DNA of 64,000 bases, from NCBI GenBank assembly GCA_041649175.1, contig JBAZNR010000001.1, positions 322,332 through 386,331 of the forward strand, read 5' to 3'. Under the pieces are notes generated by a model, which was not told the origin of the DNA, made no database searches, and saw only the letters and a program-made list of their open reading frames with translations. A program made the position numbers and the translations under genes. Source of the stretch: Candidatus Omnitrophota bacterium (GTDB taxonomy: Bacteria; Omnitrophota; Gorgyraeia; Zapsychrales; JBAZNR01). Positions 3,001 to 60,700 of the stretch are shown one piece after another (position 1 is the stretch's first letter; every line of letters begins with the position of its first letter).

Positions 3001-6000
3001 TCTGCCTCTTTTTTCGAGATTAAATTTTGTAAAGCAGCTTTAAACTCGCCTTGCAGCCTCTTCGTCTGGGCCGCTTCCATTTTAGGATCATAATCTAAGG
3101 CTTCTTTAAGCGCCTCAGCCGCGCGGATAGTTTTTTCCAAATTGGCCCAGGAATGTTCTTTGATCTTTCCATCAACAATAAATTTCTTAAATTTTACCCC
3201 GAGTTCTTTTGTCTTCTTTCCAACGATCTGCCGGACGCGTTCTTTGGTCAATTCAAAAATACCGGCGATATCCTCCAAATACCAATGTTCTTTGGGATTT
3301 TCGGCAATGATCCGATAAAAGAGAACTAAAATCAAAGCATCTCTTTGATTGTTCATATCTGCTAAAAGCCACAAGATTTCTTCTCTTTGAGATGAGACAT
3401 CTAACTCCCATTCCACGTTAGGAACGGTATTCTGCTCAATTTGCAAGCCTTCGTGAGCTTCAACACTCTTCCGTCCTTCCACTGGATCCCCGAGGCGAAC
3501 AAAGGTAATGCGCGGTCTGCTTTCTTTTTGACCTCCATTGTTCCTCTGCTCTTTACTTTGTTTAGGAATTCTTATCGTACGGCTATACTTGGCCTTAAGC
3601 AAGTCATGGACTCTGTGCCGTATCCAATTAATGGTATAGGTCATTAATTGTATCCCGCGCTCTTGATCAAATCGGCCGGGCCTTAAAGCAAAGAAGACGC
3701 CTTCCCTGGCAATAGCCAGAAGTTCTTTATCAAGAAAAGCATGATTTAAATATTTCCCAAATTCTTGAAAAATCAATCCCGTATTGGACTCCACAAAATA
3801 ATTGATAATCTTTGACCTTAAATATTCAAATTGTTCCTGCAAAGACGCATCAAAACTGACCAGCCGATAAGCTTTCACTAATATAAGCTCTTCTTCCGGT
3901 GTAAGATTGTGGACGGGCTTACCTAAAATTGTCTTGGCCGCATTGATCGCCGTCATTTCCGCAGATTCCTGATCAGTATTATCGGTGGAAACTACTCCGA
4001 ATAGGGACATCGGAATAAAACAATTTACTGAACTGCCCTGGGACGACTCACTTTCAGGTTCCAAAAACTGCTTATCATCTCTGACAACTTTGTCTTGCAC
4101 AATGCGATAGTTCACTGTTCTTGCAGTCGCTCCGGTAAGATTTTCTCCTCTTTGCGGAAACGCCCTTCTTAAAGAAGGAGAAGAAAATTGAGCAAAGTTC
4201 CAGACGATGGCGCTGATGTTCAAATGATCTGTCTTTATAATGACTTTTTTGCCGCTTTTGTCCTTAAATCCGTCAACGGTAATCTCATAGGGGCCGACAC
4301 GAATTAACTTAGTAACATATTGCCCCGTTTTCCCGTCAAAGAAAATAACTTCATCACGTTCCCATTCAGAGTCCCGCCGGGAAATACCTAAACGGCGCTC
4401 AATATAAAATGGAGTTTTATAATACCAGCTCACTCGGGTAGAGCCGACGGTGGTCCCGCCTCCCTTGTTAAATGTCACTTCTCTGGGGCGAAGGATATTC
4501 CGGTCAAAATTCTGAAATGCCTTGACGCTAAAGGGGCGTAAGTAACCGTTTGTGATTGGAATAACTACGTTTGAATTATCCTTCCCGTCGCCCAGAAGAT
4601 AAAACACATTACCTTTTTTCTCAAAAACAACATAATTAACAGGATTATTCCGCTCAACAACAGCCAAGTAGCGCGACTGAGCCCTTTCTCTGTAAAAAAT
4701 AACCGGAAATGGATCACGGGAATAAAATCTAATAAATCGAATTCTCAGATTTCCGAACAAAATTTCGTTATGGTCTTTTGGCAACGTAAAAGGTTTATTT
4801 TGGCTTAAATATTTCATCACGGCTTGTTTGCGCGGCAGCTGATAAACATTTTCTAAAACCCGGTCGGCAAATTCCGCTGCCGCGCCGTTATAATAAAGAT
4901 CAACCGAAGTAGCTTTGTCTCTGAACTGGATTTCTTCCTTAATGGACGGATAATTTTTATAGGCCGGAACCCAAGCAAATATTCGGCCTTCTTTTCTCCT
5001 CAAAATAAGGACATTGTCTCGGTCGGTTAAGTCAACCAACTTCACCTCAACACCAACAATGCGTTCAACTCTCACCACGCCGGAGAGCTCCTGCGGAAGC
5101 AAAATAACAAGATCCCCTCCCATTTTTATTCTTGGTTTTGACAATACGTAAGTTAATTTCTTTTCTCCCGCGCTGACTAATCCGAACAGAACCGGAACGC
5201 CCAATATAAAACATCCTAAAGATTGCGTCTGATTTTCCGATCGGCTGATACCCGCTACTTGTTGCGGTATTTCATCTTCCCATGCAGGCGTAAAGGCAAA
5301 ATAGATAAGTTCCGTCGAATGGCCCAAATGATATTTCTGAATAAAATCTTTAACACGGTTATACCGGTCTCGAGAATCTTCGGCGAGAAACTCTTGATTG
5401 GTCCTCGGGAAAATGTGGTGCAACTCTTTTCTTTGAGCTCTGTTAAGATCCTTTCGCAGCATAGCCTCAACGATCAAATGCGCCCACAAATACGGCTTAT
5501 GCTCTAAAACAAGGTTGGTGTAAAACAGCTCTCTTAAGATCTGTTTACGGGCGTGTAAATTTTCTTCTGAGAAAGATTTTCGGCTCAGATGTGATTTAAA
5601 AGCGGTCCAGTGATATACAGCCCGCAAATAGACCATATCTAAACGATTCGTGACCCTCATCCATTGACGCTGTCCAAAAGGTGTGCGAGCCCACCGGTAT
5701 AATTTTTGATAAAGGTATGTTTCTTCGATCTCTGTCACAAGATTATGGGGTCTTCCGGATAAGACATCAGAACCAAGCGGGATAACGATTTGCTCGATAT
5801 TTTGATCCTGAAGAAAATAATCCAATCTAGAACGCGGCGCTACGGCATACCCTCTGGCCGCTTGGATAGATTTGAACAACTCCGCCTTGCGTTGTCCACG
5901 GTTTCCTCCGATGCGATTAAATAAATTCCAACGTTCGGCTAAAAACTTAACCGTTTGCCAACGGGATAATTCATGCAAAATGATGATGCGGTCAACTTCC

Positions 6001-9000
6001 ACAAAATTTTGCTGCGGCAAGATATCTGTGGCCTGTTTTTGCCCGTTGTGATCGGTATAATAAAATGCTTGATACTCCTCAGGAACATATTCTAGCGGCA
6101 TCATACCGGCAAAAATAGAATCGCCTAAGATCATGACCTGGATCTCCGAAGTTCCTACCAAAGACCAGCGTCCGGTTTGAAGCATCTGGTAAGTTACGCG
6201 CGATTCTAAAATCGGGTCACGGCTAATTAAGAGAACAACTTCTTTTTCTTTGGATACATTATTTTGGATAACATCACAATTCCACCGGGAACGTTCAATA
6301 AAGGGAAGTAAATTTTCGGCAATGAGGAATATATTTTTTCCTTGTTCTTCCTCGGCTAATTCCGATCCGGAGAAAACAATATTAAATTTCCTCAAGAATT
6401 TAACCACATCCGGCAAGGGATCGCTCAAGCTCACGGTAATTTTCTGCGCGTCGTCCGAAGAAAGCTTTCCGTAAGCCGCCAAATTCACCAAACGAACAAT
6501 GAGATTCTTTAACTTTCTAGAGATCGGTGAACGCAAATAATAACCGATGGTTCTCCACGCTGTTAGACGCTTATGTATTTCTTCTTCAGCCTTTTGGGCG
6601 TCTTTCTCCAGGCTATGCGCGACAAGAACAAGCCAATTTCTTAAACGCTGTGACAAGGTATCCAGGTATTCATCTTCTTCGACGAGCTGCCTCGAAAAGA
6701 TCGTTTGAGGATCATTTTTATCTTTCTGAAATAAACGCACGCCGTTTTCACCCGCCATCAAAAGACTTTCAGAAATCCCAAAATACCCTCTTTGCGGAAT
6801 ACTGTTTTGAACGGGGTGAGATGTAACGATCATATTGACTTCCCGCCCGGTCCTTCCAATAAAATGGATCTTGTCAATAAATCCCTCACGAGATTGAATG
6901 TCAGAGCGGATATCACCCATCAAAGGCGAATAAGCGTCAAACAAGGCTTTTAAAACAGGGGCTTTTAATGATTCGATGCGTCTTAGATCCCGTTCCATCA
7001 TATCCAAAGCGGTCACGCCGGAAAATCCCGCGTAATTAGCTTCCAAGACCGGGCCGCCATGAATAACTAAAATGCCCTGACGCCCGTAATGATAGATATA
7101 ATAATGTTCTTTCATCCAGGCAAACATTTCCTGCATCAAGGGATCTTGCCGGAAATTTTCCATAGTCAAAGGCTCTTGGCCTTCTTGAAGCAAGGTTTGA
7201 TTATATTCTTCAAAAATAAATTTCCCACCGCCCATCGCAAACCAAACTTTCGTTAGCTGCTCGTGATCCATCATGGCCGCGATAAATTCAACTTCATTCG
7301 AACCATAAAGAAGAATAAGGGGAAGTCCGTCGACTTCTTTGTAATGGCGCAAAATTTGATAAATACGTAAATTTTCTTTTCCCTTGCCGAATATGTCCCC
7401 CGTTAAAACGATCTTGGTGGCGCCTTGCGCGAGCGCTTCCGCCATTAAAAGCTCTAAAAGTTCACCGTCGCCTTCAATATCGCCGATAAAAGCAGTACGG
7501 GGAACCTTGGAAGGTTTTCCACTTTTGTATTTCTCGATCTCACGGATAAGTTTTAATTTATTGCGGGCAAAGATCAGTTTCTTTATTTGAACCGCCAACT
7601 CCTCAATGCCGATGACCACCTGGGAACCGGAACGAGGGTCTTCATAAAAAAGCCCTTTAGCGGATTTAATGAGTTCCAACAGCGGCGGTAAAACAATAAG
7701 AAGCCCGTCTCTGGTATAAATTTCCCGGACACTTTTTGTAATATAATAATGATTTGCTTTTAGTTTTTTCTTCAACTCCCGAGCAATATCAATAAGTGTG
7801 CGCAAATGGTCGTGGGAAAATATTTTCTTATGCTTATCCATGTACACAGCCATTTGTTCCAATGTCTCATCCGAAAAGATAAGAAGCTTGGCCAATTTAG
7901 TCAAAAGGCCGAATATCTTAACCACATTTTTAGCCAACATGCGGTCTTGGCCGATGATTTCCCTGCTGTAGGCTAAAACCATTTCTTCAAAGATCAATTC
8001 CCAAACCTGTTCGGCGATCTCAACGGGCGGATGCGTTTTAGGGTCAGCTAAAGCCTCATGAAGAAGAACCACGCCGTCTTGCGGCGACTTATAAGCTAAG
8101 TGCTTAAGATCAGGGCTGAATTTGAAAATAGCTCCGTGAGCCATCTCATCTTTCAGCCGTTCTCTGATGACTGAAAATTCTTTTTCGTTTTGCCCTAAAA
8201 TTTCCGTAAGAAATTCTATGTAAACTTCTCCGTCGGCAATGATGTTGTCTCCTTGAAGCGTCAGGCTTCCGGGATGGCGGGCAAAGAAGTATCCGTTGAC
8301 CGTCCCAAAAATAAACGGAACGGAAAAGATCGGTAAGGCGGCAAATGAATTAAGCGTTTGATTTGATCTATGTTGCGGCTCTAAACGCACAACTCCGGGC
8401 TCATGAATAGATTGCACGCGCCGGCTGATGATCGTTTTATGTTTTAATCCGGCCTTTGTGAATAACGGTTCCCAAATAAATAATCGGTCCAAATAAATAG
8501 CAAAGATCCCATAGCCTTGAGATGAAAAATGTTTTGGCAATTGCTTTAAAATAGCCTGCATTTTTCTCTTAGAAATAAAATCGTTGTGGTTATTTGTCTT
8601 TCCATCGACCGGTTCCGGCGCATGCCAAATGATCACATCGTAAATACCCAGCCCACGCAAACTATTGTGTTTGAACACGCGAACGTTGTTTGTCAAGCCG
8701 TTATGCACAAGATTATGCCCCGTCAGCAAAATACTTTCTTCGGCAATATCGATCGCGTCTACCTGCTTGGCCCCGGCTAATATAGCGGCGATGACATCAA
8801 TGCCGTTTCCGGGCCCGATCACAAGAACTTTGCTTTCAGGCTTTAAAGTGCCCGGGATCTCTAGCGCGCGCACCATGCGCAGAGACTCAAAATGACGAAT
8901 ATCATCGGCAAAAACGATCGTCTGATAGATTCCGGGATAATTAAATACGGTTAGCTCACGGCCGAACATAGGGACAACGGAAGGCGATAAAAGGCTTGGA

Positions 9001-12000
9001 TTTAGATCTTGTGCGGATCCTGTCGAAGACTTGCGGAAAATCAAAACCGCCATGCCGGCTTTAGCTATCCCCCACCAGCCACGGAAAGGTAAGACAGCTA
9101 AATAAAGCGCCGACATGACGGAAATTTTGTCGTCTGAGACGTCGTTAATTTTATTGTAACTCGGTGCCCGTGATTGAAAAGATGTTTCTAAGATTTCTTG
9201 GCGGCCTATCTTCACTATGAAAATAACTAAAAGGGTTGCCAAAGACATTAAGACGCCATAGAGAACAAATCCATTAAGAGAATTTAAATTTTCTAATTTT
9301 TTATGCCGTCGGTAAAGATCGACCAAATGTTCGGTCGCTTTGGCCTGGCCGACAACGAACGGTAACGCCGTTTTTTCCGGAGAGAAATCGTTCCAAGAAA
9401 GCGGAAAAAGGAACGCTCCATCCATCCGATAAACGCGCAAACCCGCCGTCCGCAATAACACCGCGGATGGAACAACATCGTGAACGCCGCCGGTCATTGA
9501 CGTAAACGCGGCATGCCGCCGTTCTCTGCTGAAAATAAGGCGCGTTGCCGTATAAATAAAAGACGACTGCTGTTTAGAGATCACAAAATATCTACTGCTC
9601 TCTAAAACACCACGCAGCGGATGCGGCTCGCCGCTCCAATCGGCAATAATAACTTTATGATCAGCGGAATCTTCCGGGGAAAATTTAATCGGACGGTTGT
9701 TGACAGAAACTTCCCGAGTTAACGCATTGGATTCGAATGTCTCATTTAGATCCGGAGCAATGATCATAGAAATCAGCGGCCAGCCTTTATAAAGGACGCT
9801 TAACGCGAAAACATATTCGTTTGTGTCCTTTTGGGCATAAGCCCGCGTTCCGTCAATGGGGTCGATCACCCAAATAAAATTCGTGTGGCCGAAGTTAGCA
9901 CTATTTTGCCGGATCAAGGGCTCTGGGAGGCCGATCTCTTTTAGATCTTCCTCGGCATGAATATAATGCGTCGGGTATTTTGTAGATATGAACTCAAATG
10001 CCATTTTTTGCGCTAAATGATCTGACGATGTAACCAAAGATCCGTCCGGCTTTCTTTTGACAACCGCCTGATCACGATTCATTTTGATCGTATCAGCGAT
10101 ATGATTTGACATGTTTCTGGCAAAGCGCACTATATCACCGACAAAATCTTCGTCTAATTCTTGGGCCACCGCCGTCACGTTTAATTTCTCTAATTCCGGG
10201 CGATATAATCTGTTGACCCGATTATGGAAAATCGTCTGGATACGAAGCGGAATAAGCGAATTCGGATGAGACACAAACCATTCGGTCGATTGAACATAAG
10301 ATTTGGCGGCCGCCATTGTGTATTTATAACGCGGTGTGGAGATATTATGCAGTCTGTCGGCGGCTTTAATGATCTGCAGATATTTCATTAGTAAATGGTT
10401 TGTAACATCAAAGGCAAGCAGGCGGCCTAAAAATGTTTCATCTTCTTCTAACGAATATTTCTTGCTCAACAGAAGAATACATTGAATGATCAGCTCAACC
10501 GCTGCTGCGTCATCAGTTAATTTTAGTAATTTTCCTCTTAACTCTTCGATCAACTCCGTCCGGGATAACGGACCCTTGTAATCTTCCAAAACATCGTGCA
10601 ATAGCGCGACCGCCGAAATAATTTCAAACCAGAATTTCGGCATATGGTCAAATTCAATTTCTTCGTAAATTCTAAAACTAAAAACCAAAGTTTTAAGCGT
10701 GCTTAATAAATGCAAAATATACGGTTCCCCGTTAGAACGGATCTGACCGGCATGATATTCTCGCGCTATGCGAAATACGCCGTCTAAGAAGCGCTCATCA
10801 AACCATGGCCGGAAAGATTTGATCTTGCGCAAGATCCTTTTAAACTGATTTTCAATGAATTTCTCCGTATATTCGGCCGCGATTTTCTTATAAAGATAAA
10901 CACGGCCAAAGATCGGCTTGCCAAGATACTGGCTTTCAGTGCTATCCTTGGAAACGAATGCACGGACGGAATAGGGGATCACCAGCCAATAAGAATCAAA
11001 GAATTTTTCCGCCGTCATCAAGATCAAACCGCCGTGGCGCGCATTATTAACGATATTGCCGGCCATGATATTGACCGCCCAGGGCTGGTCTTCTTGGGCA
11101 TTTAGCTCTAATTTATATTCGACAAAGTTATAAGTAATAAGATCAAATTTTTCGTCTTCTGAGTTCACTCGGTAGTCGATAATATTGTCGAGGTAAACAA
11201 TTTCGATTTTCTCCTCGATCTCCGGCTTTAACCTAAAGCGGCCTGTCGCAGTTTTATTAAAAGAAATGCTAATACGCCGCTCTAGATCTTCACTTAAAAC
11301 TTCATTGGGCTTAAGAAACCAATGCAGGCCGTAATCTTGCTGCAGCAACACATTCTGTTGGCTCTTAGAAGCCGTCACAATGATCTTGAAATCCCGAAGC
11401 CCGGCTTCCCACATCAAAGCGGCAAAGCGCTGGGCTTTAAAATTGTGCCAGCCGTCTTCATATTGCGATATCCCTCCGACAACATTAGCGCGCATCGTTC
11501 TCCCGGAATCTTTCTTCTGTGTTTTAAAAAGCTCCGGAATGATGACGCGGGTCAAATGCTGATAGATCCCGCCTTTTTCATCAAAAAAGTAAGGATGATT
11601 AATGGATCTTTTTTGGGCAAGATAGGCTTGGAATTTCGTACTGCGCCAGATCATGGCTAAGATAAATCCCAAAGCGCTTAATCCTAAGAAGAATTCTGCA
11701 AAGATAAACAATTCTTCACGGTGATCAGAAGGAGTGGCATCATGAGCAGGAATCGCCCATCCTCTTTCCGAAAAAAGCGATTTGATCCTATCTCGATGAT
11801 CGGAAGTAAGCCGCCTAACATGAAGAATTTCTCTAATTTCTTTCCATGTCAACTGATTACGACGCCCAATAGACATTGCGTCAACTCGCTGGGCTAAGAA
11901 ATCCATTTCCCTTTTTAAGAACATTTCTTTTTCTTTTGCCAACTGCGCTAATCTTTCCGGGCTAAAGACCGGCGTTGGCCAGCCATAATCACGAAATAAC

Positions 12001-18000: not shown

Positions 18001-21000
18001 GCAATGCCGTGCTCTTTGAGAGCTTCTTCACTGACAGAGGTAGGAAGAAGATTGACATTGGTCGGATTAAGAAAGATTCTGGAACCGGTTTTCTCCATCA
18101 CTTGCCGGCCAACTTTTGGATAAGCCGTTACAACGATCATTAAACGTCCGTATGGTTTAGCCACTAAGGCAACGCGCGCCATATCGGAATTGCCGGTATA
18201 CCAGACATAAACATTTTCATAAACCGGCCATCCCCACCGCATCGCTTCCGTGACAATGCCTTTGATGTCTCGAGCAGTAAGCAAATACGGGAAATAGATC
18301 GAATTACCGTTAGCTTCTGCTCCGATAAAACGCGGTAATTGTGAATGCCGGGCGATAATATGATCAAAGGCATTCTCGGAGAGATAAAGCTTTTGGGCTG
18401 TTATACGGTTTACTTCGAACAGTCCCGCTATTCTTCTCCTGGGCTTTCCTATTTCTACTTTTGACGGCACGGGAACAATAGTAGCGGCAATAGCGGCATT
18501 CGAAGCCAAGCCTAAACGAAGCTCGATATTAGATACCAATTGATCAATATCGGAAATAACGGCTTCATCCCTCGAGGTTTCCCTGATCAATGAAAGAATC
18601 TCTTTAATGGCCTCATCAAATCTTTTTCTTTCATTAGATTCGGCCTTACGCTCTTTGTTCAACGTTTTTGTTTCTTTAAGATAAGCAACAAAGCGTATGC
18701 CCTGCTGGGTCAAACTTTCCTTAACAGCATTGATCTCGGTTTTTCGGTTGAGCCCGCCTCCTTTTTTAAGATCAACTCGAATTTTAACGATAAGAAACAT
18801 AATCAACGCATCAAGAGCTCGATCGTCATTCATCATTCCTAAAAACTCGATAAGCTTAAGGTGTTTTTCTAAACCGCTGTTGTTCAGCACAAAATCAACC
18901 TCCGCAAAAAGTTGCGGGCGTAAATTTTCGGTTTTTTGTAAAACATCTTCGGCGGAAATATTCCCCTTCAAAAACTCTCCGAGAATATTTTTCGCCGTTT
19001 CTTCCAATATGGGTTCGGCTTTTTCCGTCGGATGGGCGGCACGCTCTAAACGCCTTCGAAGAACTTTGCGCTGCGTTTCTAAGCGGCGCCAAAATTTGGC
19101 TATATCTCTTCTGAGCTTTCCTAATTTCTTAATTCCCAAAGGAATAAGGTCAGCCGTCAATGAATAAATAAACGCCGCAACGATGCCGACAATAACTAAC
19201 AGCGCCCGTGTTTTATGCCACGTCCATTCACCCAGCCAAGCCTTCGTTGAGTCATTTGCCGCCGCTTGCAATAAAGAGAACGCTCCGGATAATAAAACAG
19301 CCACCACCACCTTTACCGGCGTGGCCCACGACGGTAAAAACGCGTACAAACGGCTGACGGCTTGTTTCACATCGGGCTGGGTTTTAGCGCGATGCACGAT
19401 CGCTGTGGCGGGGATATTAAGTTTTCTCGATAAGTTTCGGCTGACCGTATAAATATTCCTAGGCTTATGAGAACGTGTTTTAAACACGCTAGCTTCGTCA
19501 ATGATCGCCTGGTTGATTTTTTGATTAAGTTTATCAATGGCCTGCCTGACCCTTAGACTTCGTTGACGGCTTTCTAAAACCGTCCTGACGGAAAATCCCG
19601 ATCGTGCGGCGATCGCTTCATAAACAGTTCCTTCAAATCCCTTCTTGGTAACTGTTTTGCTGATCTCTCTGACCGCAGATAAAATAAGCGAATCAACCTG
19701 CGCTTTACGGTTTATTTTAAGGTTTATAAACCACTTTGATTCATAAGCTGTTCCGACAAGGATTCCGGCCTTCTTGGCAATATCTGCTTTATCAAATAAT
19801 CCGCCTTGTTTCTTAAGCTCCCGGTAGGCTTTCTTTAAACGAAATTCGGAGGAAAGTTTCTTTCTAATTACGCGTAAAGCTTTGCCGATTTGAGAATTTA
19901 ACTTTTCTCGATGGTAAACAGTCGCGACGGCGACAACCGCTCTAACGGCAATTTCCTCATAAGGATTAATGTTAAAATTTCCGTTATCGACCATTGCTTC
20001 AACTTGCGGAATAGCGGCAAGAATACGCAGATCAGACTCCAGGACAACATCGTTTGATGTCAGCATATTAAACCAGAATATCTTTTGCGCAGTTTCTCTA
20101 GCCACTCGCGCTTTTTGTAAAACCATCTTCCGGTTGAAAAGAATTCCTGGTTTTTTGAATTCTTTTCTCGCGTCCGCAACGCGATGGCCGGCAGAGGTTT
20201 TTCTTAAGACTAAGTCCTTAACATCGGAATTATCCTCCAATAAATCATAAAGTTCTCGCGTGCTTATCCCCATTTCCCGAGCGATATTTCCTCTGGTTAA
20301 ACGCTCTTTACGTTCAAAAAGAATTTCAAGGGCAGATTCAACTCTTGCTTTTAGATCGTTCTCTTTTGAGGGATCAACCAATCCAAAGGCAAGCGGAATG
20401 AGCCCGCCAATAAATGCGTTAAGCTGCGCATCGGCCGGTTTTTTGAATCCATCAACATAATATTCTCGAAGAATTCCAAACGGAATGCGAACAGCGTCAG
20501 ACAACCCGCCGTTGGTAAGTTTTTTCAGGAATATTTCGGGGACAGACAAAATAAAATCCTCATCTTCTTCGCTGATCGGCTGATTTTCTTTCATCGCATC
20601 GTTAAAGCGGTCATAGACATTTGCTAATTCACCGATAAGGGGGTTATCCTTCGTCCAAAAACTCAAAACCGCAATAAGATAAGATGAAAACTCTTTAAAA
20701 AATTCACTTTTACCAAGTAAGGCAACAATTTTCTGGCGCTGACCACGATTCATCAATCCCGAAGATATGGTAACCATGTGCATAATAGCAATGATCTTTT
20801 CTTGACGGGTCAACCGGTAATAGTCAGCGTGATAAATAACTTCCAAGTTGCTTATGGCCTCAAAATAATTATTGCGCTCTAAGGCCCCGACGATACCCTC
20901 ATTCATAAGTTCGGTTCCCTTAAAGCGAGCGATCGCCTTGATCTTAAGCAATGAAACCAAAAGATTAATATAGTCCGCGTTCGCATCAAAATAAGGAACC

Positions 21001-21719
21001 GTAACAATGATAGACTGGAATTTTCCGTCTTTAATATTGATGCCCAGTGTAAATAAATTGCTTTTCCCGTCCTGATCCTGCTTGGTCTGATAAAAATCAA
21101 TTTTGTAAGCATCAATGACCGCCAAAAGGTTTTCTAAAACTACCCCTTGCCCTAAGCGATGACGCAAAGCGCTTCTTATTTCTACCGTTATATCCGTCAT
21201 GAAGACAACTTTGACCGGACGGATCTTCTTTAAAGCAAGCTCCCAATCAAGTCTTGGATTTATTTTGTAACGTTCCTGGCTGAACAACAGAACCTCGATC
21301 GTATCCCTGAGGATATCTTGATGATCTGATAAATATTTAATGTCTTCTTGAATGATCTCTTCTTCGCTTAAATGGGGTTGAAGGATACGCGTTTTTTCAT
21401 GTTCGAGGAATCCTAAAACAGCGGCCGGGTGGTCTTTCATCAGCTCAAAAACTCTCCAGTGAATAAGCAAAGTCCCTTCGCTTTCGGAGACCATCATCGC
21501 CGGGCCGGGTAAAGCAACGATGACAATGCGAGTTAATTTCTTAGAAACAATAAGATTACCTAAGTATGGAACGATCTCTTCGACCTGCCCGTAGAGCTCT
21601 TCTTCTTCATCATGGGTGAGAAAGCCATTATGGATCTTAGAAATAAAAAACTTGCTCAGGACATTGGCAGATAAAAATACGGTGGGCCTTTCAATGGCGG
21701 CAAACTCGGCCGGATAAGC
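1..21719 (-). CDS. Segment C of the giant ORF: C-terminal side, 3' end beyond the window start. The first in-frame ATG is at 21495-21497, but protein-like sequence begins at 21719.
   Basis: Frame decoded at 57, 181, 541, 781, 2101-2340, 3181-3300, 7381, 8761, 9841, 10021, 10561, 12901, 15361, 20281-20460 and 21481-21719. Confidence 0.6.
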
Positions 21720-24700
21720 CTTAAATCCGCGTAAATCAGGGACAGTCCCCAGCTCAAGTTGGGGACTGTCCCTGTGTAAACGTCGAATTTCTTGTTCATA
21801 TGCATCGCGCCGGTCACGGCCTTCATATGTCCAAGCTAAAGCTGTATTATCTTCAATAAAACGTTTTAAAATATCCGCCAGTGCTTTTAGGGTTTCTTCA
21901 CTTTGAGGGCCCGTGAGCCTAACTAAAATTATTTCCTGAGGATCAATCGATAGGAGAATAAGCCCGATAAGGTTTTGGGCTATATTATCCACTTCTTTAA
22001 TATCTATTAGATTACCGCTGCTAAAAGTAATTATATCGGCCTGGACATTGAAAAGCTTTTCTATGGTTTTAGCTTTCCAGCTGATCATCTCCGATGGAAA
22101 AACATGAAGCCCGCGCGGATTAGTCACCTGCGCGGAAAACGCCACTTTATTGACCACACCGAATATTGTTGGAATAAATATAAACGAAGGCGCAAAGCCG
22201 TGAACGGTCATTCCCTTCACGGGAAGCTTAGAGGACCCGGACATTGTTCGATGAACCGCAAACGCTCCCAAAATCAAGCGTTCGGTTTCCCTAACAACAC
22301 TCATCCATTCTTTTTGATTAATGGCATAAGATAAATACCCGGATACGAGGGCTTTGAGCGCTTCGGCAGATTGCAAGGCTGATTCATAATTCTTATATTC
22401 TATGGCTGATTCGATATCGATCTCTAAGAGTTCAGCGATCCGGTGTGCTAAATCTTCAGCTTTTCGCACGGTATCGGTAAACGGATTATGCGTCAAGTGG
22501 AGGATCGCTTTTTTGCGATCACCGGATAAAAGATAGGCAACAATAAGAATTTCATATTGCATCTCTAGATCATCATCATTGGGATGAAGATTTCCAAGGT
22601 AAGATAAAACATCTATCGCTTCTTGATAATCTCTAACATAAATAAGAGCATTGCCGAAATGAACGCGAGTTGCATTGTCGATCAACTTCATATTAATGTG
22701 GCCTTTGATCAAATAATAAAACTGCGCTATATCTTCAATGATCTTTTGGCCCAACGATGAATAAGGATTGGCTTTTGAATCAAATAAAACGGCCGCCATT
22801 TGATGGATATGCTGATCAACGGTGCTCACCGAGATGAACCCGTGCGGGCTAATGCTCGGCCCATGATCATTGTCGCTGTCAACGACCACGCCCCAAATAC
22901 CCGCCAAGGCGCCAAAAGCAAACATCGGCGCAAAGGCAGCCAAAGAAGCAAGCCGCGTAGAGTTGCTGCTGACTTTTCGTGAACGTAAAAAGTAAGCATG
23001 TTCGTGGCCATGATTGAGGTGTTCGCCTAAAATAATATCGCTAAGCCCAAGTCTTTTGAACAATTGCCCTATAACGGTCGACTCAAGGATCTTTTCTCCG
23101 TTTTTAATAAGCCGAACGGACTGATCTGCCGCTGTCGAATCACTATAGGGATCAATGTATGTAAACGAGGGTGAGACCTGGTTTAAATATTCTACGGTCG
23201 GTTCATTGCCGATCACACCATCTACCATGACACCCGCCGGAAGCTTATCCAACAGCGCTTTTAAGAATTGGGTGGCTAGTTTCTCTCCGGTCAAATGGCC
23301 CATGCTGATATATAAGAAAATTCTCTGCGTCGAACTATACATGTGACCTTTAAACGAGGACGCATCAAGAGGACGGATATTGCCAATATCAAAAATTCCT
23401 CCGGTGTTAAACTCATAGGTCCCAAGAATTTCCGGATTGTCATCCCCTGCTACGAGAGGAAGATTTTCTTGATGTTCAAAAACACCAGCCTTCCAGATAA
23501 TTTCTGCCTTTTGAGATCCGGGATCACTAAAGGTAACAATGAACTGATACCGTTGTCCGTTTTTAGCGCCAACGGCTTCAAAACCACTTAGGCTGGTGAT
23601 CACCGATATAAAGCTAACCATATCCAAATACATTCCCGGCGCAAAGGCGGAAAGAGAACTAGACCCTGAGGATGGGGATTCTCCTGTCTTAAACGGCGCG
23701 AACATGTTGAATTTATCCGCAAAGTCATCACGCAGATCCGTAAGTGATCTGATGTCTCGGTCTATTCCGTAAGCTTTGCTGCGGGCAATAGTAAGCAATT
23801 CGTCAATGATGGGTAAAATAATTCTTGTCTGGTCATGGATATTAATATACTCCCCGACGTGCCCTTGTAATTGCGGGCTGTCCAAGCGATCAAGATAGAT
23901 CTTCTTTAAGGCTTCGCTTAATTCTTCTTGTGACGGCCGAACAAAATTGTAAGCAATTAACTCTACGGCTAAGACTTTACTGATCATTTCGATCCAGCGC
24001 ATCGACTTCATAAAGCGTTTTTCGTTGGAAGGAATTTCGGAGTTTCGGATGTAATCAAGAGAACGGCTTTCTTGGATCACGCCGCTAACAAGCGTGATCA
24101 ATTCCTCAATGCTAAAGCCTAAAATAGCGTTTAATTGAGCGGCGTTCGCGTTTCTATTGGGATCGGTGGAATAAAAATAGTTCGCGCCGAAATTCGCCAT
24201 TATTAGAGAAGCTGTCGCATCCACCGCTTCATAGCGGAAATTGCTCGGCCAAATGCCGTCTTCGGGGCCGATCATGGCCCAAAGTCCGCCGGTCGTTTCG
24301 TTTTGAGTTTCTGAAATAGAATCGATAATGGCGGCGGCCTCTTGTTCACCGCCCAAGGCTTTAAAGGCCGCCGCCATCCCTAAAGTCGCTTCCAGCCAAA
24401 CGGATGTAGTGTCACCCATCTTTTTGGCATAACCGATAAGTTCTACGCCGTTAATGGAAACATGATTGGCATTGATCCAATGAAGCGCGGAAATATAATG
24501 AATGGGGTCAATATTAAGAATCGCGCGCGCCTGATGAAGCGCTAAAATGCTGATATATTGAACGTCTAATTTTTCATCCGTCGCAAAATCAATGATACCG
24601 TCGCGCGACCAAACAGATTCAAAATGTGTGGGGCGCCACATTTTCCCGGTTAACCAGTTAGCCAGTTCGCGGGTTATGTTGCGGTAAGATTCACGGGTTT

Positions 24701-27700
24701 CTTCGGAAATGGAAGTTTGTTGAGATAAAACATTGAATAACATAATAGCGCGGGCATTGTGTTCGGTAGAACTCCAAATGAAAGCTTGTCCTTGAGCATC
24801 TTCCCCGCCGCGCAGGAAATGATAAACAGTTTGCGTTTGAGGATCTGTCCAGTCGCCGTAAAAACGCATCATCCAAGTAGCGGCGCGCTGAGCGGCGTTT
24901 AAGAATTCTTCATTGCCGGTTTTTGTATAAAGATCTACCAAGGCGCGCGCCATCGTTGCCACCGGCCCAACCATACGAAGTTCGCGGACATAATTGACTA
25001 AAATTTCTCCACTTGTCACATCGTAGGCATTGGCCCACCAACCATCCGCGTGTTGAACATTGATAGCGCCTTGAGCCAAACGGCTGGCATTTGCAACATC
25101 ATCCATCGCTAAAAAGGCACCAATTGCCAAAGCATTATTAAAGATCCATGACGCATTGTAAGACGCGTCTGTTTCGGGAACGCCGATAAAGCTGCGGATA
25201 AGATTGGTATCAGAATTAATATTATTCACCAAGAATTGTTTGGCTAAGGCGTTTCGTTCTTCCGGTGTTAAGGGTTCTTCTTCTTGCGGTTCGGTAGGAT
25301 TTTTCTTACTGCAACCTTCTAATAATGGGCCGGAAACAGCCGCTAAGGCCACGATCACCGCGAATTGCTGAAGGAATTTCCGACGAGAGATCGCGCGCAA
25401 AGGCAGCGTTTCCTTGCCGAATAAAATAAATAAGGATTCAAAGATTTTTGAAAGAAGCCCAAATCCGGCAGGGATTATGGCGTTAAGTCTGGTTTTATCT
25501 TGATGCTTTTCTATTTCTTTTTGCTCTTGTTGTTTTTCATAAATACCGCCCGAACCAAAGACTTTATCTCCTAGCTTCTCTAACTTTTCTTGATATTTCT
25601 CTTCTAATTCTCCAAACTTTTCTAATGAGTAATGATCGCTTAAGAATTCTTCAATAAAATTAAAAACTTCTTCGCTAAGATCATGACCCCATTGATTCTT
25701 AACCGAAACCGAAATAACCTGATCTTCTAGGGGCATACTTTCGATATGATCGAAGAATTGCGCAATCGCCATATTGCTTTCGAAAGTATACAAATCGATG
25801 TCGTTAATGGAAATTAGAACTGTTACATGTATGTCAGAGTATATTGCCTCAATCATTTTTTTCATATTCCAAACAGGTGCAAAATGTATCTTATAGACCG
25901 GATGGTACTGCTTGATGATCCAGCCATTGACTTCTCTGGTTTCTGAAATTTGCACTATGCCAAATACCACCGGTGTAAATGCCACAAAACCATTAAGCGC
26001 TGTCGCGGCTGATGCTACACCCACCAGCCACGGAGAGGTTGGTAGCATCGGAATTGCTTCCTGCCGCGACAGCGCTAAAATGACAGATAGTCTTTCTATT
26101 TCTTTTTTATACTCGGCGGATACTTCCCCATCCGCAACTAAAGCATCGGCATCGTTTAAGAATCTTTCAATTAAGGCTAAAATTTCTTCCGTAAATTTAT
26201 TGCCAAATTTATTTTGAACTTTCACGGCTAATACTTGCTCTTCTAAGGGCAATCCTGCTCGAGCGACGAAAAATTCCATTAAACCGGTATGGGCGTTAAT
26301 AAAAGATTTTAAATTAACTCCGCCAAAATAGATCTCAACCGAAATGCCTAAGGTTCTCTCAATAGCGCCAGCTAATTTATTAATATTCGAAACAGGAACG
26401 AAATGAATTCTATGTTTGGATGTTATTTGCCGCTCGACCCAGATTTCTTGAATAGATTGAACTGTTCCAAGAAACAGGAAACTAGACGAAACAAAACTAT
26501 TAAGTTCACTTAAGCTTCGTTCATGATCAATTTCCGATTTCTTTATGATTTCGGCTTTAAGGATCTGCAGAGACTTACTCACTAATTCCCCGAATTTGAA
26601 AATATAAAGGCTCATCCCACCCATGTAATTAAAATCCATCCAATCTTCTTGATCTTCAAACGCAGGATCCTGCCAGGGAAGCCGCTCTAAACGGCCCAAG
26701 AAAAATTCACGGTAAAATTCATCAATACGGATATCTTCAATAAGAATTTCAGGCGCCAGGTTCTTATGAAAAACAAGATTCGTCAATAGATCGTAAGCAA
26801 AAGCATAGGCATCAAAATAACGCTTCCATTGCTTGCGGTGATCTCCCATCGTCCCTAAACCAAGCTCCAGATTTCCCGCCGGAATAAGGCCGGTTGAATA
26901 AGTCACCATTTCTTCATAACTTGGGTCGGGTAAATTTAAGGATCCTGCATCGCCGTGGACAACAACGCCCGTTCCATGAAGAATTAAGGCGATATTCGTC
27001 CGGATGGATAATTGCGTAATCTGATTCCTATTGCTTAAGTTCTCTATACCAGTGACATTGTACGCAACAGCAGGTAATCCGTTCGAAATATGGGTCACGC
27101 CCGAATTCTGGGAGCTTCCTTTGACAATAATCACCACATCAAGGTCATTAGGTAAATTGTTCTGGGCGTGCCAAAGATAGTCGCCAAATACAATGATAAT
27201 AGGATTTTGAATATCCTGTATCGTCAGCCCGTTGTTGCCTTTTTGGGCGATTTGCTCAAGTAAGTCTACTAAATTTCCGGCAACATCTTCTCTCTCTAAT
27301 AATGTCGTTAATCTTTCTTTCATCATAGAAACAGCTTGCGGCTCATTTCTAATAAATGTCCACAGAGGTCGGTGGGAATGGTCAAGGTCAAATAAAATAT
27401 CATCAACTGTTTTTCTGTTATTAATTTCTCTGACAAAACCGAATGCAGACAACCCAAATCCAAAAAACGCGGAAAGTTTTTCTTCTTTCGTATCTTTGAC
27501 AAGAGAAGATGGCGCCGACTTTAAATATTCAATAATGGCCGGCGCTAAAGAGATCGTGCGCGCCGCAGAATCCAAAGAATTAGTTGCCACTACTTCGTTA
27601 AAATATTTTTCAAACTGTTTGAGGCCGGTGGAGAAAACACCGTGCGCCGCTCCGGCGTAAACTTTACTCGCGCCCAAAGCGCGCACCGCTTTAGCGAAAG

Positions 27701-48700: not shown

Positions 48701-51700
48701 CATGAACCCATCCGGCTTTATGGATACGCGCCAAGATCTTAGCGGCTTTGATGAGAATATCCATTTTGTCTTTGGCGCTAAAGTTAAGGAAAAGTTCTGA
48801 ATCTAAATCGTAGCCGTTAGAAATTCCTTTAAGCTTGATCCAGAAATTCCCTGATTTATCATTGCCCGCCGAAATAATTTGCGGAATTCCCTCTTTAACA
48901 CCACGCCTGCTTAGATCACGTAAGACAAGAACTTCATCTGTATTAAGATCGTGGGCTACACCGGAATTCGCGGTTACCTTATAAAAGACAGCTGAATCTT
49001 GCGGGTCTTGATAAATATTAGAGAAGCTGCCATTGCCCAAAACAATTGCAACGGGAATATCTTGCCCTGCGGAAATTTGAGCAGAAGTTGCTTCGGTCCC
49101 AATGCCGGTTTTTGGTAATAGGCTTTCATCGAATACGACTTGCCCTGGTAAAGCTGGGACATCGCCCCAGATAGACACATCCAATAGATGATCATCAGAA
49201 ATAGAAGAGGCCGCTTGATGATTAAACTTTTTCCACCAGCCACGGTAGGCGAAAAGTCTCAAGCGGCCTTTTAAACCAATCCAAGATAATTGTAAATTTA
49301 AACTCAAGAATCTTAATCTGCTTTGAACAGATTCAAACCATTTCTTGATCTCTTGACGATAAATCCATCCAAAAACCGCTATGCCGATACCAGGAATAAA
49401 AACCAACAGATGAAGCGGCACTAAAAAGACAAAGAGCTGATTTTCATGTTCACGATCTGTGCTAGCAGCCGCTAATCCATTCGGAGAGCCTGCTGGTAAG
49501 CGCCTGCCTATATTTTCTTCATCAGCAACAAAAGCAACCACACCACCTTGCTGATCTCTAACCGTCCTAAACCCGGAATACTCTTCTTGACCTGTCAGAT
49601 CAATCCAAGATTGCCATCCATCAAACCGCTTGATCCCCTGAGCACCGAAATTAGGACGATAAAAATTCCTGAGCAGCCCTTCCGTAGTCCATATGCTCGC
49701 CGTCGTTGCTTGATGACGTTCTCGGCCAATGGTCAGCGCCGCGGCTATAAGGACCCGGCTTAAAATACGTAATCCTTGTTTTCCTTTATTGCGATAATCA
49801 GGATGAACGAAAAGCCCGTCTCCTTCTTGAGAATACCTTAAGTCATTTTCCCGAAGGAAAATAATGCCATAACGCCTAAGGTTTTTCTCTGCTTCTTTAT
49901 TAAAACCGATATTATTAGAATTCCTATCAGCCGCTTCAAACAACATTTTACGTCCTCTATCCTTAGATGACGGATAGACCGCAAAATCCAAATACGCGAT
50001 GTGACGTTTTTTGCTTAGATCAAAAGTGTCTAATAAATAGTAGGCATTGCTCACCGTTGACACCACAGCAGCGCGCAAAGTAAAGAGAATTGTATTTTTC
50101 CCTGAACGATAAACCGTCCATCCTTGCTTGATAAGTTCGTCAAAATTTAAAACACCCTCCGGCCTTTTAACCATACCCAAGGCCACCAACCCAAATACCG
50201 GAAAGATCATGCTATGGAGAAGCTGCATTTTTTTGGCCTCGGAAACACCTTGATCGGACTCAAGCCGGTAGAAGTAAATCCCGGAAGCCTGGCTGGAAAG
50301 ACCGAGAGAAACGGTGTGGCGCCCGATAGAACGTATTCCAAGGTCAACATGCTGAACTTCGCGGCCTAAAACATCAAAGACCTTTAAAACAATTTTACGC
50401 GGCCGGTCTAATTCAAATTCAATAGTTGTTTGTCCGTTGAACGGATTGGGATAATTTTGTTTTAATTGGAAGCTTTGTGCTATCGGATGGAGAGGGTCGA
50501 CCGCTGTCGTCCCGGAAAGAGAATCAGCCATATTGATAATATCGTCTGCGGTCATTTCGTCGGTTACAGAAAACGCGGTCGCATCAAAATGAGTATCCAG
50601 CCACTGACGATCGTCATCGGAAATCGGACGCGTGTGCACATTAATGCCGATAAAATCATACCCTGTTGAGAACGGGCCGATCAAAGCCACGTTAAAGCGA
50701 TAGACTGTATTTCCGTCAATAACAACATAATTTCTTTCAACCGTATACGTGGTATCTAATCCGGCAACCGCGCTATCAAAGGCGGCATATGTCGCATCAA
50801 GATCGACATTCGTTAAAGAAGCCATCGTATTGTCGATCCAGTTATTGTATTGCGTGTATTCTGTATACGCAGGTATTTCAAAAGAAGCAACTCCTTCAGA
50901 TTGAAACATCAGAGCAAGTAATTGCGGGCTAAGATCGCGCTCTTCATCGTGAAAAGCAACCCAGGTTGTATCAACCCCAATACCATTTTGGCCCTGCCCG
51001 GCAAAAGCAGGAGTGAATGCAGTCGGAGAATTCGGCGGAGGAGGAATGTAAAGATATTCTAAAAGAAGTCCTTGCAGATCAAGATAATAATCCCTTAGAC
51101 GAAAATACATATAACGCTCACGCGTTGTCACGTCAAGCTCGTCCAAGGTGTGACGAGGTTCTTTAGTGACAACAGGCGGAGCGCGCGGATCATAAATTTC
51201 ATATTGTCCGTTAGATAAGATCTTAATATCACCAGAAGCAAGTGCCGCGCGCCAAGGCAAGACAACAAAGAATGCCATCATCATGCCGACAAATAACGTC
51301 ATAAATTTTCGCACAATGGGGCGCGTGATCGCTTGATTGATAGACGTTATGACCCCTTTGGGATCAGAAGGCAACATTTGCGCCCTTGAAAACGTTTTCT
51401 TATTTTGAAAAATAAATCCATCTTTTTTAAGATGTGAATAATAGAGCCCGGCAAAAACCGCTAATCCAACGATGGGAACAAAGATAAAAGGCGTGATGGA
51501 TAATAATTTATCTGTTCTTGTTCCGCCGATATGGTTGAGCGCTTTAAATTCTTGAGGCCGTTCGATATCAACGGTAACAATACCTTCGATATTTCTCACC
51601 AACGTATCAACAATTTCTTTATTGGTCACATAGTTAAATCCGGATAATCTAAAGACCAAAGTCCCTTCGCTGGGCTCACCGACCGGAACATCAACGCTTT

Positions 51701-57700: not shown

Positions 57701-60700
57701 AATCGCCGGAATACCAAAGGGTGGGGTCTGAGCCGTTAACGATCCCGACGATCTTTTCTTTAAATTCTGGGAGGACAACGATCTTTGTGATTTCGGCGTG
57801 TTCTTCGGCAACGCCGTTGATGACATTGGCCATGCGCGCCAAACCAATAGCCGCGTGGGCAACATAACCATCGGCAACAACTTCTCTGGCTCCATCCCAA
57901 TCGCGGATCAGATCCGGCCCTAATAAGGTTTTAAGCCACTGGGCCGGCCAAGAAGGAAGCGCCGCGCGTTCGGGAGTGTGAGTAGTCATTACAATTTTTG
58001 TTTTATCAAAAATACTTTTCTGGTTTTGGCTATTGAACCAGTCAATATCATTTTTCATAGCGGTCGCCACAAAAACCAATTGTGGTTCATTGAGCCGCGC
58101 GACATTGGGGTGGATCTCTAATTGCTTCATTAATTCCACATAGGCGCGGGCAAAAAAGCCGAATTGGCGCGTCTGGCGTTCATCGCCGGGATACAGGCGG
58201 TTGAAGATAGAATCTTCGCCTAAATGGCGGATCAAGAATATCGGAATACCATTACGATTGATCCAATAAACCTGTACGGTATTATGCGGATGATGATTGA
58301 AATCAACACTAAAGGTAAGCGGCACGAGTTGATTGCGGTTATCTAAGATCACCACCGGTTTGATGCCGGATTCATTTTGCCAATTGATCTGGACACGGCT
58401 TCCCTGCGCGTCGTAATAACCTTCGTAAAGCGGCATCACGCCGATAGCGGAGAATTTTTTCAAGAGATGATATGCACCCCAGGTTTCGCCGGTTAAAAAT
58501 CCAAGCCCGCCGGCGGCTAGGGCTTTTTGAGCCAGGCCTTTTAATTCCGGTAAGAAGGCTTCCAGGGAAACATCGGTCACGATCGGTTTGCCGGATGTTC
58601 TGATGCTATTTAACATCGGCCCCAGCGTGTCATCGGCGATAACAAAACCAAATATTCCAAATCCAAAAAAGCTTGGAGTAAAACTGAAAAGTCCCGTTCT
58701 TTCGCCTGTGGATAACTCATTAGGGACGTTTCTGTTCTGTATCTCAGAACTGTCCCTTTGAGCTATAGCCTGTGAATTCGGGGACAGTTCTGAGCGCTGC
58801 GGCAGAAACGTCCCTAAATCTAAAATAGACCGTATTAATGATTTGCCCGTAATGCGTTTAATGGCCGGCCCGTCTGTTTTTATGGAACAGCCCAGTAATT
58901 CTGATAAATGGAAGAATGTTTGAATACCAATTAATATTTTGAGAGAAACTGAATTAACAAAGAATATCGTGATGCCGCCGGCAACAAAAAGGAAGTGAGT
59001 GGCCAGCGGCGCAAATAACACAATGAGGCGTTGAGAATCAGTCGCACGTTCGCTTCTGTGGTGCCGCACATTATATCGGCTCATCAACCATGCCGGAATG
59101 ATGTGCATCAAGGCATGAATAACGGGAACGCTAAACGTAGTAGCGGCAACAACGGCGCTCATCATGGTGATGCGCGATAAATCCAACGCTATTCCAATGT
59201 TATCTTCGATTTTTAACGCGATGAAAGAAGCAAAAATAGAGTAAACGAAGTATAGTAAAGACCCAAAGCCGATATCTTGTTTCTGCCAGTAATGATCACT
59301 GATAAATCCATTTTTGTTAAGCCCTAAGAGCTGACTTTTAATATATTTGAATATGTTTTGGATTCCCAAGCCAAAAACAATCGGGCCAAAAGCGAAAAGC
59401 TTTGAAGTGCGTCCGACTTCTGCCGTAACTTTCTCAACTAGATTTTTTTGCTCAACGGAGACAACGCCGAAACGCTCGGAAGAGTTCGGGATCCAGCCAT
59501 GAGAAAAATCAGTTGTCACGACAACCGTTGGAGTTTTGACTAAGTAAGCGGCGTGAACAATAGCTGTATCGATGGTCACCACTTGGTTAACTTGGCGTAA
59601 AAGCTCAATAGTGGCCGCGCGGCTTTCCCAGTCGGTGTTGACTTGGCGGCTGATATCCCAAAGCTTTACGTTAGGGTGTTGCGAAAATCCTTCGATCAAA
59701 TATCTTAAACGCGCCGAAACCACATTTTCAATATTGGTATTAACGATCACCGTGAAGCCTTTTTGCAAAAGCTGTTCAATGATCCCGGCCCAATTTTGCC
59801 TGGATGAATCTTCGGATGATGTACTAGCTAAGAAGTTAACGAAAATAACCGGCGATGTAGAGGAAATACTGTTTCCGGTAAAGAAATCCCGAACGATTTT
59901 CTGAGTTTGAGAGAAGCTCGGCAGAATATCTGTTTCGCTGGGAAGCTCAAATCCATATTCTAATAAAGCGGCGCGAATACCCACATGAGCATCTAATCTG
60001 CCCCATGTTTGACCGCTTAAAATATTGATCACATTACCGCCGTAAATATCAATGCCATGCATATTGATAACCATGTCGTACAACGGGAAGATCACGTCAC
60101 GTAATGTCGATATCTGATAAAGGCTAGGCATATCAAGCTGGGCAAAACGAGCTGTCTTGTGATCGTTTAATTCTCGATAGGGATCCTCCATGCCGTTTAA
60201 ACTCAAGGCAAAGATGCTCAAATTCTCTAAATTCGGGAAATTATGCGAAAGTGTTTTTGCGATGATCGGTAAGTAAGCCAACATCTTTCCCCATGTTCCG
60301 GTCCCGGCATAAATGAAGACTCTTTTTACTTTTGAGAAATCTAAGCTTCGCACTTCTTCTGCTCTCGGCGTTAAATCTCCGTTATTGAATAATGATTGGG
60401 ATCTGGAATCTCCCTGCGTCGCTACAAAGCCAAAAACCGCCACAGGAACAAACGCGAAGCTGTGAAGAGCGCTGACACTAGAATTTGAAATAAAGGCTGC
60501 TGCCGGGTGATTCCCCAATCCAGCCACGGAAAGATTGGAATCATTTTTATTCGCCGGCAGCAGCCCAATATTTTTATTCGCTAAACGCCATACGCTATAC
60601 GCTGAGCCTTTAACTCTGTCCCCTATTTTTACAAACCAATCTCTAAGCAAAGAAACGATTCCGGAAATTCCTAACCCCAGCACAAACGCGGCGAGGTTTT

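Follow-up and report, generated by a model that had tools for sequence, protein, structure and literature searches.

A palindrome read in frame within a giant open reading frame of an Omnitrophota bacterium, and its possible relation to REP-like repeats

This report concerns a perfect palindrome at positions 21737-21774 of a 64,000-nucleotide stretch of DNA from Candidatus Omnitrophota bacterium (contig JBAZNR010000001.1, positions 322,332 to 386,331), which was analysed at its full length and is referred to below as the window. The palindrome lies inside a giant open reading frame (ORF) of the minus strand and is read in the same frame as both of its flanks. We consider the chances about even that it is a copy of a palindromic repeat resembling the repetitive extragenic palindromic (REP) sequences, situated in frame in the giant ORF and translated with it. 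An earlier note on this DNA described the region 21720-21900 as a palindrome-associated disruption of the reading frame; the disruption is an artefact of decoding. Among the explanations offered there, a small mobile palindromic insertion is the one that we favour, although its basis is no longer the state of the frame and consists of relatives of the palindrome found in other genomes.

The palindrome is composed of two 15-nt arms, CAGGGACAGTCCCCA (21737-21751) and TGGGGACTGTCCCTG (21760-21774), separated by an 8-nt loop (21752-21759). The inverted repeat reported earlier (14 bp, 21736-21773) thus does exist, with arms longer by one base and an offset of one base. On the minus (sense) strand the predicted structure is an extended two-tier hairpin at 21723-21790, with an imperfect outer helix of 10 bp and the perfect inner helix of 15 bp. 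The sense RNA of 21715-21795 (81 nt) folds at -41 kcal/mol versus -17.2 +/- 2.8 for 200 dinucleotide shuffles (z = -8.4), none of which (0/200) is equally stable; the sense and antisense folds are about equal (-41.0 and -39.9 kcal/mol). Synonymous-codon shuffling, which keeps both the protein and its codon usage, gives a similar picture: for perfect inverted repeats (arms of 11 nt or more, loops of 3-30 nt) the mean over 200 shuffles is 0.47 versus 4 observed, and a 15-nt arm appears in 1 of the 200. Most of the 12 codons in the palindrome are seldom used in this ORF (AGG accounts for 10% of Arg, AGT for 11% of Ser and CTG for 9.5% of Leu), and their joint probability given the peptide is 4.8e-9. 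The G+C content of the arms is 67% versus about 43% for the gene. Considering the shuffles, the rare codons and the arm composition, the palindrome is a property of the nucleic acid and does not result from the protein sequence.

Taken alone, each arm is nearly self-complementary (GGGAC-A-GTCCC). The palindrome is bracketed by a 5-nt direct repeat TTTAC; the element and one repeat together make 45 nt, or 15 codons, and their excision would fuse ...EQEIRRL to RGFKAY... in frame. The palindrome begins 30 codons (90 nt) past the end of an HPr-like domain (PF00381, 21864-22136, minus strand; E 1.9e-4, 23.9 bits with a cutoff of 23, profile positions 4-80 of 81), in a stretch free of Pfam matches. 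A single-sequence AlphaFold model, intended to place the insert in a loop, had a pLDDT of 32 and was unusable. No terminator-like site with a U-tract was found on either strand within 20800-22800, there is no excess of promoters around the palindrome, the arms lack GTAG, and Rfam 15 yields no family at the gathering score or by E-value, either for the palindrome or for the other hairpins of the window. Two further candidates were rejected: an integron attC-like site, whose R'/R'' cores do not fit, and a selenocysteine insertion sequence, for which an in-frame UGA is missing.

The reading frame is continuous here. The minus-strand translation of 21401-22019 is free of stops in one frame (SGNLIDIKEVDNIAQNLIGLILLSIDPQEIILVRLTGPQSEETLKALADILKRFIEDNTALAWTYEGRDRRDAYEQEIRRLHRDSPQLELGTVPDLRGFKAYPAEFAAIERPTVFLSANV; LVRLTGPQSEETLKALADILKRFIEDNTALAWTYEGRDRRDAYEQEIRRLHRDSPQLELGTVPDLRGFKAYPAEFAAIERPTVFLSANV), and the 14 codons running through the palindrome (21735-21776, minus strand; peptide HRDSPQLELGTVPD) belong to the frame of both flanks, with a predicted read-through peptide LHRDSPQLELGTVPDLR. 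The earlier note distinguished peptides of the "flanks" from those of a "shifted frame", and assigned eight stops in 180 nt to the main frame. All of the quoted peptides fall in the one minus-strand frame (the shifted-frame peptide said to start with G starts in fact with S), and this true frame holds no stops within 21715-21902, where the other two sense frames hold 3 and 9. The 9-stop frame was evidently mistaken for the main frame during decoding by hand.

With the premise of a broken frame recognised as a decoding error, the explanations built on it fall as well. A single frame is open across the region, so no indels are needed, and the proposed paired homopolymer sequencing errors drop out. 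Programmed frameshifting or bypass drops out likewise: the codons 5' of the stem (GAA ATT CGA CGT TTA CAC) contain no in-phase X-XXY-YYZ heptamer, no stop and no matched codon pair that could serve for take-off and landing, the alternative frames close quickly (3 and 9 stops within 190 nt), and the frame remains open through all 21,332 codons of the ORF. A strong hairpin could in principle stimulate frameshifting, and the site shares with frameshift-stimulating hairpins and the T4 gene 60 bypass a stable stem-loop within a coding region; it differs from them in that the frame does not change and neither a slippery or take-off site nor an in-frame stop is present. We found no evidence in favour of two compensating single-base indels bracketing the hairpin, whether sequencing errors or programmed, and consider the chance of them negligible. 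The earlier description is hence corrected: there is no frameshift, bypass or sequencing error at 21720-21900, and resequencing is unnecessary.

Relatives of the palindrome were sought by an exact scan for GGGACAGTCCCC-N(2-20)-GGGGACTGTCCC, with each bacterial or archaeal species represented by one genome. At least 120 loci match this arm pattern, in about 70 genomes among the matches listed (a hand count of record titles); a naive estimate gives about 0.1 matches, assuming random sequence where real genomes are rich in GC hairpins. The listed matches include Bacillaceae, Coriobacteriia, Thermoleophilia, Acidobacteriota, Nitrospirota, Binatia, Planctomycetota, Acetothermia, Proteobacteria and three Omnitrophota. 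Several genomes carry multiple copies, e.g., Bacillus sp. 1P10SD, RUG12554 and the two Omnitrophota metagenome-assembled genomes (MAGs) with loci L004 and L102. The usual full unit is the 13-mer GGGGAC(A/T)GTCCCC, palindromic about its central base, and this GGGGACWGTCCCC unit recurs across many phyla. It also forms arrays, tandem or evenly spaced: three abutting units are found in an acidobacterial MAG, and four units with a spacing of 21 to 32 nt occupy positions 1-100 of L004 (Omnitrophota MAG JADGBA010000064.1), at the contig end.

The relatives avoid long open frames and lie mostly outside genes; the open-frame span at the listed matches has a median of 222 codons versus 416 at random positions of the same loci. 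A T-run follows approximately one in six of the listed hairpins. Clustering of neighbouring ORFs at the 120 listed loci revealed no conserved neighbouring gene and no linked transposase, the only clusters being ABC ATPases, response regulators and histidine kinases. The phylum-wide breadth of GGGGAC(A/T)GTCCCC hairpins is unusual for REP-type repeats, and we found no description of the motif; a literature search for its literal sequence returned only unrelated eukaryotic and viral primers.

Some of the copies elsewhere are read in frame, as in the window. The arms and the unit are free of stops in all six frames (reading GDSP, GTVP, GQS, GDCP, GTVP or GLS), so that a copy arriving at a tolerant site can persist as a peptide. 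In a Binatia MAG (JBOHVS010000094.1; locus L120, 1328-1361) the open frame around the hairpin exceeds 2,666 codons, and the hairpin is read as GDSPLSGMGTVP, in the same phase as RDSPQLELGTVP of the window (G/R-D-S-P ... G-T-V-P). The host sequence there is the condensation domain of a non-ribosomal peptide synthetase; it aligns with Txo2 at E = 4e-104 and also with Txo1, both of which have solved structures. The Binatia domain is 12 residues longer (429 versus 417 aligned), and Txo2 is gapped at the position of the hairpin. Judging from this alignment, the locus is a clear case of the hairpin being carried in frame by a very large gene, as an insert in a variable loop.

Further copies were found in open frames. 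In a Kiritimatiellia MAG a copy is located deep in an open frame of 1,923 codons, where the phase differs and the reading is GTVPVSRGTVP. A Coriobacteriaceae MAG has a copy that shares the phase of the window copy and is translated as GDSPLSTQGTVP; it is near the start of the open stretch, and so may precede the real start codon. Three copies of the motif occur at 1837-1925 of L004, in a C-terminal extension of feoB of about 65 residues. Motif copies also occur in a proline-rich stretch of a 590-residue ORF at 1468-3309 of L102 (Omnitrophota MAG JAHFFS010000032.1), and a full GGGGACWGTCCCC hairpin lies 38 nt upstream of the start codon of this ORF. The ORF has only a weak HTH_32 match at its N-terminus and no NCBIfam match; it is a possible lead to a mobiliser of the hairpins.

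In several respects the element resembles the REP sequences and the bacterial interspersed mosaic elements that they form: it is short (20-40 nt), GC-rich and folds into a stable stem-loop, and its relatives are also multi-copy, clustered or arranged in arrays, not enriched in target-site duplications and mostly extragenic. Those known repeats are extragenic, whereas the copy in the window is intragenic. Classical REPs are specific to a lineage, have GTAG at the 5' end and are associated with RAYT (Y1/HUH) transposases; here the window arms lack GTAG, no linked transposase was found, and the 13-mer unit occurs across phyla. The intragenic position has its counterpart in the Rickettsia palindromic elements, hairpin repeats found in coding genes, where the frame is kept and a short extra peptide is added in a tolerant part of the protein (PMC10969869). 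Similarly to these elements and to miniature inverted-repeat transposable elements inserted in frame, the window copy is in frame, free of stops and adds the peptide HRDSPQLELGTVPD, and the in-frame copy in the Binatia synthetase behaves likewise. The Rickettsia elements are, however, about 100-150 bp long versus 38 nt (68 nt with the outer helix) for the window element; their families each encode a conserved peptide and are confined to one genus, while the arms of the window element span many phyla; and absence from orthologues is seen here for the sister copy only (L120 versus Txo1 and Txo2).

We presume that a REP-like hairpin repeat built on GGGGAC(A/T)GTCCCC, common outside genes, would have supplied the copy; that a very large gene with tolerant loops or linkers could keep a copy landing in one of them as a short peptide insert; and that the window copy may have lodged in this way in the interdomain stretch after the HPr-like domain, adding about 14 residues. 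That the copy arrived by insertion, and that it has no function of its own, seems to us roughly as probable as the contrary. If this reading is true, translated palindromic passengers would extend the "selfish DNA in genes" picture known from Rickettsia to the longest bacterial ORFs.

Several results weigh against this reading. The empty site has not been seen, since neither an orthologue nor a paralogue of the region was found, and the insertion at this locus is accordingly something that we infer. No homologues were obtained from a word-indexed search of 5.8 billion protein clusters with 500 residues of the region, nor from an exhaustive comparison of 1200 residues with 1.84 billion representatives by HMMER; the protein pattern of the region had no match in the JGI metagenomes, and BLAST revealed no paralogue in the remainder of the window protein. 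The 64 kb contain one copy and one partial relative (58720-58817). No transposase that could mobilise the hairpins was found among the neighbouring ORFs of the listed loci. In 128 relatives, target-site duplications are no more common than in shuffled controls, and the TTTAC repeat, which may be due to chance (about 1%), is therefore given little weight. The scan has its own weaknesses: besides the naive chance estimate qualified above, a comparison with control palindromes on viral contigs gave 2 matches versus 0 and 0, which is too few to weigh, and a quasi-random 375-kb metagenome sample contained no copy, so that the motif is concentrated in particular genomes and is not ubiquitous. Finally, the perfect arms could equally reflect selection for structure.

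This last point leads to the proposal that the hairpin serves a function, as a structure in the giant mRNA or in the underlying DNA, and belongs to a set of structures needed by very long genes; it might be a programmed ribosome pause separating the folding of the HPr-like domain from that of the next domain, an exonuclease barrier, or a signal for transcription pausing or processivity. A sliding 100-nt fold scan of the sense strand of the window gave seven or eight hairpins as strong outliers (z -3.9 to -5.9), too many to be due to chance and all of them in frame; two share GGGACAGT (the palindrome and 58720-58817), and five others have CCGTGGCTGG at the apex. The palindrome closely follows a domain boundary, and its stem is perfect although it is coding. 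Moreover, a family of hairpins in the same gene (class A, described below) shows compensated stem changes, a strand bias and regular placement after hydrophobic segments, which means that structured elements under selection exist in the giant gene. The palindrome itself, however, folds equally on both strands, which is the behaviour of a plain DNA palindrome; upstream of it there is no true transmembrane segment, and it lacks an Rfam family, a U-tract and a promoter; and a gene-specific function does not explain why the same arms are extragenic in unrelated phyla. We therefore hold this functional proposal, both for the hairpin alone and as one of such a set, to be rather unlikely.

Template switching during replication creates perfect hairpins, and the palindrome could have been made in place by such quasi-palindrome correction, with neither a mobile element nor a function involved. 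It is tempting to invoke this process considering the perfect arms, the missing transposase, the lack of a general enrichment of target-site duplications in the family, the near self-complementarity of the arms (which suits fold-back copying) and the weaker outer helix, owing to which the site may already have been a quasi-palindrome. Nevertheless, it leaves unexplained the arrays and the presence of the same 12-mer arms in at least 70 or so unrelated genomes among the matches listed, as well as the rare codons and the high G+C content of the arms, and we consider it improbable. The hairpin may also be the relic of an intergenic terminator or repeat that was engulfed as the giant ORF took up a once free-standing HPr gene by fusion. 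Its location 90 nt past a complete HPr-like domain is about that of a terminator after ptsH; the ORF is a mosaic of normally free-standing enzymes, with even an internal Por_Secre_tail; and the motif occurs in the C-terminal extension of feoB mentioned above. The stem is not followed by a U-tract on either strand, though, the other hairpins of the ORF follow hydrophobic segments and not domain ends, and perfect 15-nt arms are not expected in a relic; such an origin appears very improbable to us.

The gene that hosts the palindrome is itself unusual. The ORF (2-63998, minus strand) runs off both ends of the window, comprises 21,332 codons with 0 stops, and is thus the interior of a gene longer than 64 kb; the remaining five frames contain 943-1643 stops each, and only six other ORFs of at least 120 residues (translation table 11) are listed in the window, which contains no marker gene for phylum placement. 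This gene may be a sizeable fraction of a small genome. Along the ORF about 25 Pfam families of enzyme and signalling domains are arranged in frame as a mosaic: GNAT, glycosyltransferases including a starch-synthase catalytic domain, several S-adenosylmethionine-dependent methyltransferases, HATPase_c, protein kinase, a LOG/lysine-decarboxylase-like domain, cofactor-independent phosphoglycerate mutase (iPGM), asparaginase, phosphoribosyl pyrophosphate synthetase, inositol monophosphatase (IMPase), TPR repeats and the HPr-like domain. A complete AceK is also present (309 and 286 bits). Hydropathy analysis indicates 55 hydrophobic, transmembrane-like blocks.

Giant proteins of Omnitrophota have been described as "multi-enzyme metabolic clusters" with many transmembrane helices and mostly unique sequence (Nielsen & Lui 2026, bioRxiv 10.64898/2026.06.07.730766); such giant proteins are also treated by West-Roberts et al. 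2023 (bioRxiv 10.1101/2023.11.21.568195). As a working definition of a multi-enzyme giant protein we took an ORF of at least 10,000 residues with many distinct enzyme Pfams and multiple transmembrane segments, all of which are present here. The window ORF shares with the described clusters PF08241, PF02518, PF00583 and PF08323 (their modules 1 and 2), and likewise exceeds 21,000 residues, has dozens of hydrophobic segments and is without sequence relatives. By its predicted domains and segments it matches this class. Hairpins or palindromes inside giant genes are mentioned in neither of the two papers.

A few features of the ORF are noted in passing. A Por_Secre_tail domain, the C-terminal sorting domain of the type IX secretion system, lies at 50229-50453, in the middle of the ORF rather than at its C-terminus, which hints at the fusion of a once-separate gene. 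About 23 of the hydrophobic segments (hand count) carry a recurring motif L-N/S-x-F-x-x-F-x-F-x-P-V-x-x-F-G, which we call the anchor motif, about every 900 residues; examples on the minus strand are found at 47798-47742, 46922-46866, 46241-46185, 39131-39075 and 8354-8298. This spacing suggests a chain of membrane-anchored modules. Residues from about 5400 to 9200 (approximately 47800-36400) form four or five diverged internal paralogous modules, with 25-41% identity over 80-190 residues, each of which opens at the anchor motif. Smaller tandem repeats occur at residues 11376/11606, 12497/12666, 14596/14710 and 20691/20846.

Of greater novelty are the cross-phylum GGGGACWGTCCCC unit and, most of all, the hairpins of giant genes with CCGTGGCTGG at the apex. 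In the window this class A comprises five hairpins, all on the sense strand, which have this exact decamer at the apex and stems that differ between copies. They are located on the minus strand at 63378-63449 (72 nt; core 63403-63412), 60495-60566 (72 nt, a paralogue of the former; core 60520-60529), 49205-49272 (core 49236-49245), 25993-26079 (17-nt arms and inner stems; core 26024-26033; z -5.5) and 9040-9125 (core 9075-9084). All three codon phases are used at the core, giving LSVAGLG, FRGWWG or SPWLVG. The two 72-nt copies, of 24 codons each, differ by three stem changes, and in each case the opposite arm carries a compensating change; the DNA around them is unrelated, with a weak protein-level likeness in the hydrophobic segment directly upstream. 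A consensus fold based on a MAFFT alignment of the class A copies was poor since the stems differ in length and offset, and pairwise comparisons were used instead.

A sixth copy comes from a second giant gene. A scan of the JGI metagenomes for a degenerate class A core gave 54 matches, about the number expected by chance, exactly one of which has flanking arms (15 nt, perfect). This match (L154, 1870-1956) is on the 1.27-Mb contig Ga0209310_1000003, and its whole 10-kb locus is one open frame of 3,339 codons. Its hairpin and the window copy at 9072 (in the hairpin 9040-9125) are alike over about 55 nt with a 1-nt indel, owing to which the cores are translated differently (FPWLVGDSS in one and FRGWWGIAK in the other), and the 3' arm returns to a common GMAV. 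The surrounding proteins are not homologous, and a search for the full L154 gene through the protein database returned no match, not even the gene itself. Based on these comparisons the class A family is conserved at the nucleotide level.

Four of the five class A copies in the window begin 14-29 residues past a hydrophobic block, versus 7.6% per site at random (P ~1.6e-4, for a distance range picked after seeing the data); the L154 copy begins 22 residues past a hydrophobic segment. The sense fold is more stable than the antisense fold in five of the six copies. An internal translation start after the G-rich core was considered and rejected, as an in-frame AUG is found in only two of the six.

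We also considered that the hairpins of giant genes, certainly the CCGTGGCTGG family and possibly the palindromes with GGGACAGT, might be functional signals specific to such genes, and regard this generalisation as quite unlikely. One possibility for their role is that of mRNA-programmed pauses about 15-30 codons after a membrane anchor or a domain end, or of junction sites for the shuffling of modules. If the former is true, the pauses would allow the modules of such a protein, with its more than 21,000 residues, to be inserted and folded one after another. The class A hairpins, one of which is located in a second giant gene, offer a testable handle on the making of giant proteins.

The partial relative of the palindrome mentioned above is a nested palindrome of 98 nt at 58720-58817, with perfect arms, 15 nt long in the outer pair and 14 nt in the inner one; it shares GGGACAGT with 21737-21774 and is in frame (LGTFLPQRSELSPNSQAIAQRDSSEIQNRNVPN; z -7.2). 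It is situated 32 residues past one hydrophobic block and about 10 residues before the next. A perfect 13-nt inverted repeat is also present at 24328-24377 (ATGGCGGCGGCCT / AGGCCGCCGCCAT), in frame (MAAAFKALGGEQEAAAI), and its 24-nt loop GCCTTGGGCGGTG bears a loose likeness to the class A core. The E. coli Chi octamer GCTGGTGG occurs four times, always on the sense strand (9072-9079, 26021-26028, 49233-49240 and 62037-62044), versus 0.5 expected; it lies within three of the five class A cores, and we treat this overlap as probably a coincidence.

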